A stretch of 64,000 nucleotides of DNA, from assembly GCF_003334305.1 (NCBI RefSeq), contig NZ_QOWS01000021.1; one strand, 5' to 3'. Shown here piece after piece: positions 16,137-48,943 of the stretch. Numbering within the stretch: position 1 is the stretch's first letter; the number at the start of each line of letters is the position of its first letter. The DNA comes from Escherichia coli. Its GTDB lineage: Bacteria > Pseudomonadota > Gammaproteobacteria > Enterobacterales > Enterobacteriaceae. The notes under the pieces are model-generated. The model searched no databases and had not been told where the DNA came from. It saw only the letters and a list, made by a program, of their open reading frames with translations. The translations under genes were made by a program, and so were the position numbers.

Positions 16137-16514
16137 ATGACCAACAAAGAAAACAAAGATAAATATATTAACAAGTTCAAGAAAGAGCTTTCAAAATATA
16201 TACAACCAACTGCTGGAGTGGACATTCAATTATTTAACTCTAAGGATGGTGGTGGTGTAATTAAAGCCACTTTGAATAGAAGTGGAAAAAGAAAATCATC
16301 TATTGCAGGTAATTTTACTAAATTAGGTGAGGCAATTACCTCGAGTGGGCAGAGGGTTTTTGGTGGTGATCTATCAAATGTAAATTTTTACGGAACAAAT
16401 ACGATTTTTGATGGAGATACAATATTTTTAATTAAATCACCTGATTCAGAGGAGTGGTCATCACAAAAAGCTTCCAAAGACGTAGAGGGCATCGTATTTG
16501 GAGGGAAAAAATGA
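16137..16514 (+). CDS. Hypothetical soluble protein (125 aa), moron gene 1
   Basis: ORF MTNKENKDKYINKFKKELSKYIQPTAGVDIQLFNSKDGGGVIKATLNRSGKRK...; AT-rich; opposite strand to neighbours; stop overlaps next gene start (ATGA); no family recognised. Confidence 0.55.
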   Translation: MTNKENKDKYINKFKKELSKYIQPTAGVDIQLFNSKDGGGVIKATLNRSGKRKSSIAGNFTKLGEAITSSGQRVFGGDLSNVNFYGTNTIFDGDTIFLIKSPDSEEWSSQKASKDVEGIVFGGKK

Positions 16515-16939
16515 TTAACATTACTACTAAGGATGGCACTCAAGTCAGTGGTGAAGTAAGAGATCTAGTAATTCTTCTTGAAACTGATGGAAAAACGGTG
16601 TCTGATTATTTGCAGCCAATCCCTCCCAAAAAAGATACACACTGGAGCATGATTTTCATTCCGGTAGCAATTTATATACTACTTAATCTTGTATACATTA
16701 TTGCTCACCCATTATTTCCTGAAAAATATCTAAAAACATCAACATCTATATTTCTATTCATTTCCTTCATATTAAGTGCAATAGTAGCATATTTTGTTTT
16801 CCATAAGCATAAATCTGCCACTCTATCCATATGCAGCTTAGTGTTCTTAGTGTTAATTGTAGGTGCTAACGTAGGGTTTATCAGTTACAGCGACCTAACA
16901 CAAAAAGCGACGCAAAAATTAGATAGTTTGTCTAAATAA
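16511..16939 (+). CDS. Hypothetical membrane protein (142 aa, three predicted TM helices), moron gene 2
   Basis: ATG at 16511 preceded by GGAGGG SD; MINITTKDGTQVSGEVRDLVILLETDGK... then hydrophobic segments WSMIFIPVAIYILLNLVYIIAHPLF, IFLFISFILSAIVAYFVF, LSICSLVFLVLIVGANVGFISY. Confidence 0.6.
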   Translation: MINITTKDGTQVSGEVRDLVILLETDGKTVSDYLQPIPPKKDTHWSMIFIPVAIYILLNLVYIIAHPLFPEKYLKTSTSIFLFISFILSAIVAYFVFHKHKSATLSICSLVFLVLIVGANVGFISYSDLTQKATQKLDSLSK

Positions 16940-19313: not shown

Positions 19314-19541
19314 TTAGGCGGCAGAATTACTCGCGTTAAACAATGGTGCGAGGTCGGGACGAATATCTGCTGGTTTAATCTTTCCACCAGTGGCTGAGAC
19401 AATTTTCATTACATAGCGGGCATCAATTCCGCCACCGTGTAGCCAACGCCAAACTGTGGGTTGGGCTACACCGCATAGATCTGCCAGTCGTTTTTGACTA
19501 CCTGTAATACTGATTGCGAGTTGAATGGTTTGATTTGTCAT
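19314..19541 (-). CDS. Cro-like HTH repressor (YdaS/Cro family)
   Basis: ORF 19314..19547 (TTG) trimmed to ATG at 19541: MTNQTIQLAISITGSQKRLADLCGVAQPTVWRWLHGGG...; divergent from cI; AGGA SD. Confidence 0.75.
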   Translation of the reverse strand: MTNQTIQLAISITGSQKRLADLCGVAQPTVWRWLHGGGIDARYVMKIVSATGGKIKPADIRPDLAPLFNASNSAA

Positions 19542-19572
19542 TATCAATTCCTATTGGTATTGCAATGAATGA

Positions 19573-19601
19573 ATAATAGCAATGAGTATTAACCCAAGCA
19601 A
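19573..19601 (-). promoter_or_regulatory. Candidate PR promoter (-35 TTGCTT, 17-bp spacer, -10 TATTAT on minus strand) overlapping OR operator repeats
   Basis: Minus-strand ttgctt gggttaatactcattgc tattat upstream of cro-like gene; AGCAAT/ATTGCT repeats overlap. Confidence 0.55.
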
Positions 19602-19615
19602 TAGCAAAACGTGTT

Positions 19616-19643
19616 TTGACCATCAATACGCAAGCGTATAAAT
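19616..19643 (+). promoter_or_regulatory. Candidate PRM promoter (-35 TTGACC, -10 TATAAAT region) giving a leaderless or near-leaderless cI mRNA
   Basis: ttgacc at 19616..19621 and tataaat at 19637..19643; cI ATG at 19652 has no SD, as for lambda PRM/cI. Confidence 0.45.
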
Positions 19644-19651
19644 TAAAACTT

Positions 19652-20344
19652 ATGAAAAAAGAAACTCTTGCTGATCGCTTAAATCTAGCGATGGAACAAT
19701 CTGGAATGTCTCAAGGCGCTCTTGCAAAGGCGTCTGGCGTAGCTCAACCCACAATCTGGAGACTGACAAGCGGCAACGCGCGCGGCTCAACAAAAATTGT
19801 TGAAATAGCTAATGCATTGGGTGTTCGAACAGAATGGCTCTCTTCAGGCATAGGCCCGATGAGAAATGACGGTCAACAATCAGGGAAGCCTGCTGTCAGC
19901 CATTCCAAATACTTCAAAATTGACGTTCTTGATATAGAAGTCAGTGCCGGGCCGGGTGTAATCAACCGTGAGTTTGTAGAAGTTCTACGCTCGGTTGAAT
20001 ACTCGTTTGACGATGCTCGTCACATGTTCGATGGCAGGAAGGCGGAAAATATCCGCATCATTAACGTGCGTGGTGACAGCATGTCAGGAACGATCGAACC
20101 AGGTGATCTGCTGTTCGTTGATATCACGGTTAAATCTTTCGACGGTGATGGTATCTATGCGTTTCTGTATGACGACACCGCCCATGTAAAACGCCTGCAA
20201 ATGATGAAGGATAAGCTGCTGGTTATCTCTGATAACAAGAGCTACTCACCGTGGGACCCGATCGAGAAAGACGAGATGAACCGCGTGTTCATCTTCGGGA
20301 AAGTCATCGGGAGCATGCCGCAGACATATAGAAAGCATGGGTAG
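19652..20344 (+). CDS. cI: CI-type prophage repressor (N-terminal HTH, C-terminal S24 LexA-like autopeptidase)
   Basis: ORF 19616..20344 trimmed to ATG 19652: MKKETLADRLNLAMEQSGMSQGALAKASGVAQPTIWRL... and C-terminal ...VRGDSMSGTIEPGDLLFVD...HVKRLQ (Ser/Lys dyad motifs). Confidence 0.88.
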   Translation: MKKETLADRLNLAMEQSGMSQGALAKASGVAQPTIWRLTSGNARGSTKIVEIANALGVRTEWLSSGIGPMRNDGQQSGKPAVSHSKYFKIDVLDIEVSAGPGVINREFVEVLRSVEYSFDDARHMFDGRKAENIRIINVRGDSMSGTIEPGDLLFVDITVKSFDGDGIYAFLYDDTAHVKRLQMMKDKLLVISDNKSYSPWDPIEKDEMNRVFIFGKVIGSMPQTYRKHG

Positions 20345-20473
20345 AAATCAGAACAAAATTATGCACTTCGCTTTTCAGCTTACTGTAGTAAGGCAATAAA
20401 TTAGGCTTGACGTTAGCTATCAGGTGCACAACAATAATTGTTGAATAATAGGTTTTTTTAACTAGGTGATAAC

Positions 20474-21613
20474 ATGGCAGCGGTTGAATTTCAATTGTCT
20501 AGGAAGATGATTGATTGGATAGCAAATTCTCAAGGAGTTTCTATCGAAACTCTTGCTGACCAAGTCATGCCCAAAAAGATTAATAAATTTCTTAACGGAG
20601 TGGTAAGTAAATCCGCAGCAGAAAAACTGGCAAAAATTGGAGGAATCCCTTTCGGTTTTTTATTTCTTGAAACGCCACCAACTCCAGCCAAACCCAAGAT
20701 CCCTGACTTAAGGCAAGCTATAAATAGCCGTGAGTTAGGAAAAGATTTTTTTGATGTTTACTATGATATAGAATATAAACTTGAGTGGTACAAAGACTAT
20801 TTAAGAGAAAATGGTAATGATGATCCACTCGATTTTATTGGTAAATTTAAATTTAATAGAAAATTAAATTATAAGGTTGTTGCTACAGACATAGCAAACA
20901 CAATACATTTTGATATACAAAAAGAGATAAAAAATGTCACTTTTGAGAGCTATTTTTCTAAAGTGGCAAAACTAATAGAAGACACTGGCGTATTAGTTTT
21001 CAAGAATGGTGTTGTGGGTAATAATAATAAAAGAAAACTTGACACGCGAGAGTTTCGTGGTTTCTGTATATCTGATAGCGTTGCTCCGATCATTTTTGTA
21101 AATAGCTCGGACGCGTTATCTGCGCAGGTATTTACATTATTTCATGAGGTGGCTCATCTTTGGCTTGGAGTCGATGGAGTCTCTGGGTGGGACACAGAAA
21201 AAAACATAGAATCTTTTTGTAATAAAGTTGCTGCTGAAATCTTAATGCCTGATAATCTCTTCAAATCTTTCTGGCTTAATGCATCCAGCGATAATAATTA
21301 TTATCGAGTAAAAGAGGTTTCTAAGTTATTTAAGGTTAGTGATTTCGCTTGTGCAATCAAAGCGTTACAATTAGATTTGATAGAAAGAAACACTTTGGAG
21401 ATAATTAAAGATCAAGCTTACAATAAGCCCAAAAAAGAATCCAATGGTGGTTCTTTCTTTAACACATTACCTGTTCGTAACAGTCCAAAACTTACGAATA
21501 TAATAATTTCCAAAGCAATGTCTCAACAATTACCATTAAGGGAAGCAGGCGTACTGCTAAATGTAAAAGCAGATACAGTTGTTGAATTTTATAAAAAACG
21601 AGAATCTCTATGA
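20474..21613 (+). CDS. HTH (XRE-like) domain fused to ImmA/IrrE-family zinc metallopeptidase (COG2856/DUF955-like), 379 aa
   Basis: AGGTGA SD 4 nt upstream; N-terminal HTH-like segment (SIETLADQVMPKKINKFLNG...AEKLAKIGGIP); HExxH motif in FTLFHEVAHLWLG and downstream E...AAEILMP motif typical of ImmA/IrrE peptidases; AT-rich. Confidence 0.75.
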   Translation: MAAVEFQLSRKMIDWIANSQGVSIETLADQVMPKKINKFLNGVVSKSAAEKLAKIGGIPFGFLFLETPPTPAKPKIPDLRQAINSRELGKDFFDVYYDIEYKLEWYKDYLRENGNDDPLDFIGKFKFNRKLNYKVVATDIANTIHFDIQKEIKNVTFESYFSKVAKLIEDTGVLVFKNGVVGNNNKRKLDTREFRGFCISDSVAPIIFVNSSDALSAQVFTLFHEVAHLWLGVDGVSGWDTEKNIESFCNKVAAEILMPDNLFKSFWLNASSDNNYYRVKEVSKLFKVSDFACAIKALQLDLIERNTLEIIKDQAYNKPKKESNGGSFFNTLPVRNSPKLTNIIISKAMSQQLPLREAGVLLNVKADTVVEFYKKRESL

Positions 21614-22122
21614 TTCATAATGGAAAATTCTTAATTGATAGTAATGTCTTCATAGAGGCAAAAAACTTTGCATATAACTTCAATTATTGCAAAATATTTT
21701 GGGATTTTCTTCTCGCTTTACACATTAATGGTCTGATTTATAGCATTAATGCTGTAAAAAAAGAACTATGTGCAAAAGATGATCCATTGTGTAAATGGAT
21801 TAAAGAAGAGTTACCATCATCATTCTTCGAAGATGAGCATAGTTCAATAGAAAATTATGCAAAGTTAATAAATTGGTCAACTAAATTAGATGTTACCGAA
21901 AAGGCAAAGTTTGATTTTGCAAGCCATGAAAAAGCAGATGCTTTTTTAATAGCCCATGCGATGACACATGGATATACTATTATTACCCATGAGAAACCAT
22001 CCGGTGGCAAACCTAAAAAAAGAATAATGATCCCGGATGCTGCTGCTTCTCACGGCGTTAAGACATTAACACTATATGAATTTCTTCCAAGATACGCTAG
22101 TCATAATTTTTCTTTGAAATAA
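21610..22122 (+). CDS. PIN-like (DUF4411-type) putative nuclease, 170 aa
   Basis: Start overlaps upstream stop (ATGA); N-terminal FLIDSNVFIEA resembles the first acidic PIN strand; ADAFLIAHAMTHGYTIITHEK resembles a later PIN motif; AT-rich; domain call from memory of DUF4411. Confidence 0.65.
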   Translation: MIHNGKFLIDSNVFIEAKNFAYNFNYCKIFWDFLLALHINGLIYSINAVKKELCAKDDPLCKWIKEELPSSFFEDEHSSIENYAKLINWSTKLDVTEKAKFDFASHEKADAFLIAHAMTHGYTIITHEKPSGGKPKKRIMIPDAAASHGVKTLTLYEFLPRYASHNFSLK

Positions 22123-22127
22123 AACGT

Positions 22128-22154
22128 CCCGGCCACCGTGCCGGGTTTTCTTTT
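22128..22154 (+). terminator. Rho-independent terminator after the two-gene cassette
   Basis: cccggccaccgtgccggg hairpin followed by ttttctttt immediately after the stop at 22122. Confidence 0.75.
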
Positions 22155-22276
22155 GCCTCCCCTCATCACACACACCGTTCAAAAAACCACCACAACCCCG
22201 CTTCAGTTATCGCTATGCGATGCAAGTCACAAAATTAATTCTTTTTGCTATCAAATATTTAATATCAAAACACATC

Positions 22277-22323
22277 TAGCAATAGCAATAAGTATTGATA
22301 TCATCAATAGCAATAGCTATTAT
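22277..22323 (+). promoter_or_regulatory. Candidate PL promoter (-35 TTGATA, 17-bp spacer, -10 TATTAT) with OL operator repeats
   Basis: ttgata tcatcaatagcaatagc tattat at 22295..22323; AGCAATAGCAAT repeats shared with the cro-cI intergenic region. Confidence 0.6.
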
Positions 22324-22396
22324 CACCATGTCGCAACAACACAACGATACGGCAATCACCTGATTCACCGTTGCGATGACCGCTTAGATCCGCAGC

Positions 22397-22807
22397 TTGA
22401 ATTTCAGCAGGCTCCGGGGAGTGCGAGGGGTGAAGCGGACGCGTGAACGTCGGTGTGACCAGCTGAAATCAACTCAACACTTCATACCTCAGTCGCTTCA
22501 ACGAGGCGGCTTAGTTATGACAACCGGCGGCCATCCACCGCCTGAATACGCGCAGAAGTCTTTATATGTTCAGCAGCCCAGCTTACGGGCAGGAGTTTTT
22601 ATGGTTCATCAACATTACGGAACGCAGACCGTTAATCGCGGTGCGGTCATGCCAGGAATGCTGGTCAAACACAAAGATGGTACCTGGACTGCATCAGCTA
22701 ATTTACGCGGACGGCTTTATCTGCATCGCGGCATCGAGCGCACTTATACCCGTGATTTGCTCGTAGAAGTTTTTCTCGACGGACGCGGTAACGGCCTGAA
22801 TCACTAA
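22397..22807 (+). CDS. Hypothetical protein, first ORF of PL operon (Arg-rich N-terminus; possible N-like or Kil/CIII-region protein)
   Basis: ORF with TTG start; N-terminus ...RLRGVRGVKRTRERR...; no confident homology recalled. Confidence 0.3.
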   Translation: MNFSRLRGVRGVKRTRERRCDQLKSTQHFIPQSLQRGGLVMTTGGHPPPEYAQKSLYVQQPSLRAGVFMVHQHYGTQTVNRGAVMPGMLVKHKDGTWTASANLRGRLYLHRGIERTYTRDLLVEVFLDGRGNGLNH

Positions 22808-27303: not shown

Positions 27304-27380
27304 TGGCGCGCCCTGCAGGATTCGAACCTGCGGCCCACGACTTAGAAGGTCGTTGCTCTATCCAACTGAGCTAAGGGCGC
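27304..27380 (-). tRNA. argU: tRNA-Arg (anticodon UCU), argU
   Basis: Reverse complement GCGCCCTTAGCTCAGTTGGATAGAGCAACGACCTTCTAAGTCGTGGGCCGCAGGTTCGAATCCTGCAGGGCGCGCCA; cloverleaf-compatible, ends CCA. Confidence 0.93.
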
Positions 27381-48859: not shown

Positions 48860-48901
48860 GTCATACCACTCGCCTGATTATTTTTAGCTATGTTGGATTT
48901 T

Positions 48902-48929
48902 GCCACGGTTTATACCGTGGCTTTTTTTG
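48902..48929 (+). terminator. Rho-independent terminator after allE
   Basis: gccacggtttataccgtggc hairpin followed by tttttttg. Confidence 0.75.
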
Positions 48930-48943
48930 TAGTAAATTCAGGT

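Follow-up and report, generated by a model that had tools for sequence, protein, structure and literature searches.

The window analysed here is a stretch of 64,000 nucleotides (nt) of Escherichia coli DNA (contig NZ_QOWS01000021.1 of assembly GCF_003334305.1) that contains a lambdoid prophage at the argU (DLP12) site. Within this prophage, a cassette of two genes lies between the cI-like repressor gene and the left operator and promoter (OL/PL), on the same strand as cI, which is the position occupied by RexAB in phage lambda. Gene 1 encodes a predicted zinc peptidase with an N-terminal domain of helix-turn-helix (HTH) type, and gene 2 a PIN-like protein of the DUF4411 family. By sequence and predicted fold, the pair appears to belong to a kind of toxin-antitoxin (TA) system that has already been described, namely that of VapBC52 from Mycobacterium tuberculosis, rather than to an unrecognised one. 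The cassette comprises the following features, positions being those of the window.

20345..20473, + strand: leader of the cassette, AT-rich (G+C content, GC, 0.33), recognised by its composition
20407..20435, + strand: sigma-70-like promoter of the cassette, with the -35 element TTGACG at 20407-20412, a spacer of 17 nt and the -10 element AACAAT at 20430-20435
20429..20443: perfect palindrome CAACAAT-A-ATTGTTG, which overlaps the -10 element in E. coli
20464-20469, + strand: Shine-Dalgarno sequence AGGTGA of gene 1, 4 nt ahead of the ATG
20474..21613, + strand: gene 1, 379 amino acids (aa), predicted multidomain antitoxin and sensor
21610..22122, + strand: gene 2, 170 aa, DUF4411 PIN-like nuclease, predicted toxin
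22128-22154, + strand: intrinsic terminator closing the cassette, with its stem at 22128-22145 (six G-C pairs, loop of 6), followed by a U-run (UUUUCUUUU)

The initial annotation of this locus had described two AT-rich, overlapping genes with a Shine-Dalgarno sequence and a terminator of their own, a description borne out by the open reading frames (ORFs), the base composition and the free energy of the hairpin. GC is 0.341 in gene 1, 0.318 in gene 2 and 0.326 in the leader, against 0.47-0.52 in the neighbouring phage genes, and the low-GC block (32-34%) extends from 20345 to 22122. The composition of the cassette is foreign relative to its flanks, and the leader appears to have been acquired along with both genes. 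According to the ORF list and the sequence, the stop codon of gene 1 and the start codon of gene 2 overlap in an ATGA at 21610-21613; this 4-nt overlap is kept in six of seven diverged loci, and translation of gene 2 is presumably coupled to that of gene 1 through it. The sequence AGGTGAT at the ribosome-binding position is present in three of four aligned leaders of homologous cassettes. The hairpin at the end of the cassette is a good terminator, with a free energy (dG) of -11.8 kcal/mol, but its z-score against shuffled sequences is only -1.6. No RNA family was found by Rfam in or near the cassette. Among diverged loci, nonsynonymous divergence (dN, 0.1-0.4) is far below synonymous divergence (dS), the saturation of which precludes a proper dN/dS ratio; both genes seem to be under purifying selection.

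The TTGACG and AACAAT hexamers are read here as the -35 and -10 elements of a conserved promoter that belongs to the cassette itself. Four diverged cassettes from different contexts have TTGACG and CAACAAT unchanged and at a constant distance, and the same pattern is found in five distinct versions with unrelated spacers among viral contigs. The cassettes that share these hexamers encode proteins only 53-85% identical and have different upstream genes. Within the window, TTGACG-N16-CAACAAT is unique, with 0.02 occurrences expected by chance. Given such a promoter, the cassette need not depend on cI transcription. Since no terminator is predicted on the + strand between cI and gene 1, read-through from the cI promoter PRM is also possible, and the cassette may additionally be transcribed in this way. 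Homologous leaders do not preserve the CAACAATAATTGTTG palindrome, only the TTGACG and CAACAAT hexamer regions, and for this reason the conserved part is read as promoter; the palindrome is a candidate autoregulatory operator for the HTH of gene 1, with an uncertain function. A stretch of 20 nt within the cI coding region (19785-19804, GCTCAACAAAAATTGTTGAA), which also forms a 7-3-7 palindrome, shares 90% identity with the palindrome region of the cassette (20426-20445). This similarity could be due to chance or could mark a second candidate binding site for the gene-1 HTH.

The slot that holds the cassette is delimited by the following features.

19314..19547, divergent from cI: cro-like gene, found as an ORF
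19575-19623: right operator (OR), a 49-nt repeat shared with OL
19652..20344, + strand: cI-like repressor gene encoding an XRE HTH and an S24 autopeptidase domain, upstream edge of the slot
22230..22330, + strand: OL/PL flank region, downstream edge of the slot and outside the cassette
22281-22329: OL, which overlaps the PL-like promoter
22295-22323, + strand: PL-like promoter TTGATA-17-TATTAT, found by promoter scan

The OR/OL repeat has 73% identity and contains ATAGCAAT half-sites, and kil, gam, bet and exo follow downstream of PL. These genes, together with the cI-like gene upstream, the operator repeat and the PL-like promoter, confirm the rexAB position that had been assigned to the cassette. 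The cI-like gene is annotated by the PGAP pipeline as 'XRE family transcriptional regulator' in a RefSeq copy of the locus (L001).

Relationship of both proteins to VapBC52

The gene 1 product matches Pfam Peptidase_M78 (ImmA/IrrE) with an E-value of 3e-13 over aa 169-291, and PHROG 2439 from end to end. It is laid out as a five-helix XRE-like N-terminal domain (NTD, ~aa 1-65), a PP...PD[L/F]R linker, the M78/IrrE core (~169-291) and helical domains. Fold predictions are confident for both proteins. Structural neighbours of the gene-1 model include CapP, IrrE and PrpR, as well as XRE HTH domains such as those of BswR and C.Csp231I, which have likewise been reported as neighbours of the VapB52 NTD (PMC13273310). 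The HTH initially ascribed to gene 1 holds at the level of the fold and through full-length alignment to VapB52, the only ways in which it is detected; in Pfam, an HTH is found neither in gene 1 nor in any of 25 homologs. The proposed ImmA/IrrE signature also needs a correction: HEVAH stands, but the third zinc ligand is E246 (within IESFCN) and not the glutamate of AAEILMP, which is variable in the family. Four positions or motifs of gene 1 are central to the comparison with VapB52.

20705..20713, + strand: D78-L79-R80 in the linker, counterpart of the FR motif (F75-R76) of VapB52
21143..21157, + strand: HEVAH zinc-binding and catalytic motif (H224, E225, H228), invariant in 119 of 119 homologs
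21182..21184, + strand: S237, placed by alignment at the 'cysteine switch' position of VapB52/CapP (C229)
21209..21211, + strand: E246, third zinc ligand (IESFCN), invariant in 119 of 119 homologs

The conservation set of 119 consists of the window protein and 118 homologs. The two histidines of HEVAH align to H216 and H220 of VapB52, and E246 aligns to VapB52 E245 and to the glutamate of IETLCN in IrrE. In the alignment, D78-L79-R80 corresponds to ...LRDFRR... of VapB52. Every sequence of the set has D78 and R80, and position 79 is occupied by leucine in 95 sequences, phenylalanine in 23 and methionine in one.

Gene 2 was initially described as a PIN-like protein of DUF4411 type, and this assignment is well supported. 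It matches Pfam DUF4411 (PF14367) with an E-value of 1.5e-37 over model positions 1-154 of 159, and PHROG 11126 with an E-value of 1e-67. Its AlphaFold2 model (mean predicted local distance difference test score, pLDDT, 86.9) has a PIN fold, and every one of its top Foldseek matches is a VapC toxin, with a probability of 1.0 (from M. tuberculosis, Shigella, the F plasmid and Rickettsia). In an alignment of 57 homologs, each of the acidic residues D10, E52, D110 and E128 is retained by every sequence or by all but one. By homology, gene 2 is most likely a PIN RNase that cuts tRNA.

A search of all PDB sequences returned a single entry, 9vzy, as the best match of both proteins. In single-sequence phmmer searches, gene 1 matches 9vzy chain A with an E-value of 8e-7, and gene 2 matches 9vzy_D and 9vzz_A with an E-value of 7e-6. 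With family profiles, the E-values are 2e-22 for gene 1 (over residues 10-336 of 379) and 2e-13 for gene 2 (over 8-160 of 170). Entries 9vzy and 9vzz represent the VapBC52 complex and toxin of M. tuberculosis (Rv2515c/Rv2514c; Singh et al., NAR June 2026, PMC13273310). VapB52 is a 43-kDa protein with an XRE-like NTD, an HExxH peptidase with an HTH in its middle domain, and a four-helix C-terminal domain (CTD). It binds the VapC52 dimer at a ratio of 1:2; the NTD is required for binding, while the CTD blocks the toxin's active site. Single-stranded DNA (ssDNA) triggers an HExxH-dependent self-cleavage of VapB52 that removes the NTD, probably at the conserved FR motif F75-R76. In the inactive state, C229 serves as a cysteine switch that coordinates Zn. 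VapC52, in turn, cleaves tRNAs, and growth is arrested (PMC13273310).

The E. coli pair shares with VapBC52 the order of antitoxin followed by toxin, a DUF4411 PIN toxin with the same acidic residues, and an antitoxin of ~380-415 aa in which an NTD of XRE-like type is followed by a linker with PP...D[F/L]R, an M78 peptidase with HExxH...E, and C-terminal parts that are helical. The homology of both proteins to VapBC52 chains lends support to the initial idea of a signal-gated nuclease or TA-like module. However, the two systems differ in several respects. Sequence similarity is only distant, Cys229 of VapB52 is replaced by Ser in gene 1, and the CTD of gene 1 is not alignable to that of VapB52. 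In the gene-1 model, helices are present at residues 328-378, and the VapB52 profile alignment ends at residue 336; a profile of the gene-1 CTD alone did not retrieve VapB52 from the PDB, and its sole match, a short one to GADD45, is probably spurious. In addition, the E. coli genes are located in a proteobacterial prophage immunity region with a promoter of their own, whereas VapBC52 is an actinobacterial chromosomal locus. Biochemistry is known only for the M. tuberculosis proteins, the E. coli clade being known at the level of sequence and structure.

Related architectures had been predicted long before. Makarova 2009 used Rv2515c to illustrate how Xre-COG2856 fusions are linked to toxins of PIN and RelE type and noted that Xre-COG2856 operons are abundant in phages and prophages (PMC2701414). 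In Matelska 2017, a three-component TA system was described in which DUF4411.1 genes follow genes for DUF955-HTH fusions (PMC5499597), and the class predicted in these two papers has exactly the architecture of the cassette. The cassette had initially been regarded as an unrecognised system; it matches both the characterised VapBC52 and this long-predicted class, an outcome that had been named in advance as a ground for abandoning that claim. The two predictions were computational only and did not describe the preference for the slot between repressor and PL or the conserved promoter. What is new here is the obligate pairing, the recurrence as cargo between repressor and PL/N, the cassette's own conserved promoter, the sharing of the slot with defence candidates, and the serine in place of the cysteine switch. 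No mention of the E. coli protein accessions of the pair was found in the literature.

Two further groups of known systems are comparable in part. RosmerTA (RmrT/RmrA; Millman et al. 2022, bioRxiv 10.1101/2022.05.11.491447) is a TA system with a Zn-peptidase antitoxin and experimentally shown phage defence. RmrA is a Zn-peptidase and HTH antitoxin similar in length to gene 1, but the RmrT toxin is unrelated to gene 2. Canonical VapBC systems (Shigella/F-plasmid VapBC and M. tuberculosis VapBC2/11) share the PIN toxin fold and a co-transcribed, overlapping upstream antitoxin gene. In contrast to these systems, gene 1 is four to five times larger than their antitoxin and contains a peptidase, and gene 2 falls in the DUF4411 branch and is not recognised by PF01850.

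Pairing, distribution and the shared slot

A search of IMG/VR identified 72 viral contigs that encode a DUF4411 relative, with identities of 30-100%. A full-length gene-1 homolog is located directly upstream of the toxin gene in all 71 contigs that could be evaluated, the 72nd being cut at the toxin gene; pairing of the two genes is obligate. In at least 43 of these 71 contigs, a repressor homolog of cI(S24) or Rac type is encoded on the same strand no more than 1.6 kb upstream, a count that is a lower bound given the small query panel, and many contigs also have an N homolog immediately behind the toxin gene. Rac-like prophages of Klebsiella and Enterobacter and three different lambdoid prophages of Providencia likewise carry the cassette in this slot. 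Other contexts include the tail-fibre end of Mu/P2-like prophages, where the cassette lies beside DinI and an invertase, the vicinity of Arc/Rha genes and, outside phages, a chromosomal islet of Actinobacillus with IS605 and Fic. The dinI/invertase site at the tail-fibre end is a second recurrent insertion context. The closest homologs outside E. coli (loci L014-L017, 78-85% identity) are directly preceded by dinI and followed by genes for an HTH_17 protein and a Hin-type invertase, and have the same conserved promoter.

A full-length cI homolog of the same allele is present in 719 complete E. coli genomes, and the cassette in only 34 of 5426 genomes, with both ORFs intact in at least 31. Six sister prophages with the same cI, cro and kil framework (L020-L025) were inspected for what they carry between cI and kil. 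A SIR2 protein was found twice (PADLOC candidate PDC-S25, E 1e-234). The other cargos, each in one prophage, are a hypothetical protein with an ASCH protein (PDC-M11 A/B), a hypothetical protein with a DUF3037 protein, a hypothetical protein with an MqsA-family antitoxin and SecB (TAC-like), and two small unknown proteins. The slot between cI and kil is a hotspot of variable cargo that includes defence candidates, which agrees with the earlier view of it as a hotspot for exclusion modules. More generally, rexAB and bstA are located in the cI-N region, which is recognised as a mosaic hotspot (PMC8585504). Lambda RexAB and BstA of Salmonella phage BTP1 resemble the cassette in their use of the cI-to-N/PL slot, being expressed in the lysogen and acting by abortive infection (PMC8585504). 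They differ in having no sequence or fold relationship to it, and their effectors are an ion channel and a protein acting at a DNA replication site, respectively. Matches of the cassette proteins in Pfam, PHROG, NCBIfam and PADLOC are all to families unrelated to RexA and RexB.

Proposed function and alternatives

The cassette is probably a VapBC52-type, three-function type II TA module that is carried as lysogen-expressed cargo in the cI-PL slot and that aborts infection or arrests the cell through cue-triggered release of an RNase. In such a module, the XRE-like NTD and the C-terminal helices of gene 1 would hold and occlude the gene 2 RNase dimer, and the built-in IrrE/CapP-like zinc peptidase would remain silent until a cue appears, which in the M. 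tuberculosis homolog is ssDNA generated by damage to DNA or by phage replication. The peptidase would then cut its own linker at D-[L/F]-R, upon which the NTD would leave and the gene 2 RNase would be set free. Cleavage of tRNA would stop translation, and the infection would be aborted or the cell at least arrested. Complex formation, self-cleavage and the tRNA target are attributed to the window pair by homology, and a role in phage defence is suggested by its genomic context.

A number of observations weigh against this interpretation. The position of the cysteine switch is occupied by serine in 115 of the 119 homologs, by threonine in three and by cysteine in one, and with a serine at this position autoinhibition, and perhaps the trigger, must differ from those of VapB52. 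The homology to VapBC52 is so distant that the mechanism may not transfer, and the C-terminal ~45 residues of gene 1 have no alignment to the VapB52 CTD. In the M. tuberculosis system, protection against phage D29 was seen only when VapC52 was overexpressed alone, and co-expression of VapB52 and VapC52 gave none (PMC13273310). One would also expect an ssDNA trigger to go off while the prophage itself undergoes SOS induction and Red-mediated recombination, and no self-immunity device is evident in the prophage. Furthermore, two E. coli genomes carry IS1 within gene 1 next to an intact toxin gene. In these alleles (L019 from ATCC 43886, 1625-4050, and H21, E2528-C1), IS1 is inserted after approximately codon 188 and splits gene 1 into an NTD-linker ORF and a peptidase-CTD ORF, the DUF4411 gene is identical, and the allele is evidently viable. 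Either the toxin is unexpressed in these strains, or it is still neutralised by the fragments of gene 1, or its toxicity is modest.

Database comparisons add to these points. The PADLOC check envisaged in the initial annotation produced weak matches for gene 1 and none for gene 2. Gene 1 is matched by 12 RmrA profiles, some of them nearly from end to end, with a best score of 29.9 bits (E 6e-8), and by capP, its best PADLOC match, with 53 bits (E 1e-14); gene 2 has no match among the PADLOC 2023 models at E <= 0.01. Because the RmrA matches are weak and RmrT is lacking, PADLOC would not call the cassette RosmerTA; gene 1 is related to RmrA but no clear member of its family. The GenBank phage collection contains no near-identical copy of the cassette and matches only its terminator (33 nt), and tblastn of gene 2 against it gave one weak match of 27% identity. 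This collection is uninformative on carriage by phages, and IMG/VR was used in its place.

The proteobacterial prophage clade might be a functionally distinct variant that senses a cue other than generic ssDNA or that couples DNA damage in the lysogen to RNase release as an induction checkpoint, although this is doubtful. A distinct cue is considered because the cysteine switch is absent and because the clade is tied to the slot between repressor and PL in lineages that range from 30 to 100% identity. Such a cue could come from a superinfecting lambdoid phage, in the form of an early-left (Red/Gam-type) product or a replication product. An induction checkpoint would imply a mechanism of self-immunity that has yet to be seen, as in the case of BstA-aba.

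Several explanations compete with a VapBC52-type defence module. The cassette might be a selfish addiction or stabilisation module that penalises loss or decay of the prophage region, or that persists as a mobile cassette, with no anti-phage benefit. This is rather unlikely, even though a type II TA architecture, a promoter of its own, the lack of D29 protection by the full VapBC52 pair (PMC13273310) and the movement of the cassette between contexts as unrelated as the immunity regions of prophages, Mu/P2-like prophage ends and a chromosomal islet beside IS605 and Fic would all be compatible with it. Its repeated placement between repressor and PL (at least 43 of 71), beside defence-candidate cargos, is unexpected for pure addiction. 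The prophage is also chromosomal, so post-segregational killing has little to act on, and a signal-activated peptidase implies a regulated trigger rather than passive decay of an antitoxin. It is improbable that the same sensor-antitoxin logic operates with an effector directed at phage or cellular DNA or mRNA, or with a phage protein as trigger. The nearest structures are all VapC-type tRNases/RNases and the only characterised DUF4411 protein cleaves tRNA, against which stand the occurrence of both DNases and RNases among PIN-like domains (PMC5499597), the low identity between gene 2 and VapC52, and the loss from gene 1 of the cysteine switch that mediates ssDNA activation in CapP/VapB52.

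The initial annotation had assumed that the peptidase cleaves a separate repressor, and an ImmA/ImmR- or CapP/CapH-type regulator of this kind, acting on cI, the cro-like protein or a host regulator so as to control prophage induction or another defence operon, with DUF4411 as an accessory, was weighed as well. ImmA, IrrE and CapP all act on separate XRE repressors, gene 1 adjoins the prophage repressor gene and contains a CapP-like peptidase, and CapP is the best PADLOC and structural match of the peptidase core. Such a regulator is nevertheless very unlikely. In CapH/CapP (PDB 7t5t), CapP cleaves the separate repressor CapH and thereby de-represses an operon, whereas gene 1 has its HTH substrate domain fused to the peptidase, lacks the Cys switch and is partnered with a toxin. 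The cassette includes no CapH-like repressor gene and no downstream effector operon; its sole partner gene is that of DUF4411, and the terminator follows directly. In ImmA/ImmR, the peptidase acts on an XRE repressor that the element itself encodes as its partner, but the neighbouring cI has an S24 autoprotease domain of its own. In addition, the cassette is found alongside repressors of unrelated types and also outside prophages, but in every case with DUF4411, and the characterised homolog cleaves itself, at the FR motif conserved here as D78-[L/F]79-R80, rather than a separate repressor. Finally, it is hardly credible that the cassette is horizontally acquired DNA in decay, of which only a non-functional remnant is left. 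Its low GC, the IS1-disrupted alleles and its presence in only 34 of 5426 genomes could suggest decay, but both ORFs are intact in at least 31 genomes, the catalytic residues do not vary across the family, dN is much lower than dS, and the overlap and the promoter are conserved.

If the VapBC52-type assignment is confirmed, the cassette would offer a tractable, prophage-native E. coli model for the class of self-cleaving peptidase-antitoxins with PIN toxins, studies of which have so far been confined to M. tuberculosis and to overexpression. Defence could then be tested directly at native expression, a matter left open by the M. tuberculosis work. Confirmation would also show how a peptidase sensor is gated without a cysteine switch, and it would raise the question of how a prophage tolerates a toxin triggered by ssDNA or damage during its own induction. 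Furthermore, the set of cargo types known from the cI-PL hotspot in this very common family of E. coli prophages would grow by one, alongside the candidates PDC-S25 and PDC-M11. A census of all 719 prophages sharing this cI would map a defence hotspot.

Other features of the prophage and the window

The region of ~440 nt (22160-22600) that leads from the terminator and OL/PL to kil is without an annotated gene in RefSeq copies. A recognisable N gene is absent from the window prophage; the Providencia relatives do have N after the cassette. Between P and ybcN, at 4788-5590 of L001 (~16137-16939 of the window), two co-oriented hypothetical genes are located on the strand opposite to the nin/replication genes, and this pair resembles another moron-like insertion in the same prophage. 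The end of the prophage is marked by a tRNA at 27307-27380 (- strand), an argU-type attachment site that adjoins the integrase gene. In the chromosomal part of the window, a match to the small RNA STnc480 (87 bits) is located at 48866-48932 (- strand).

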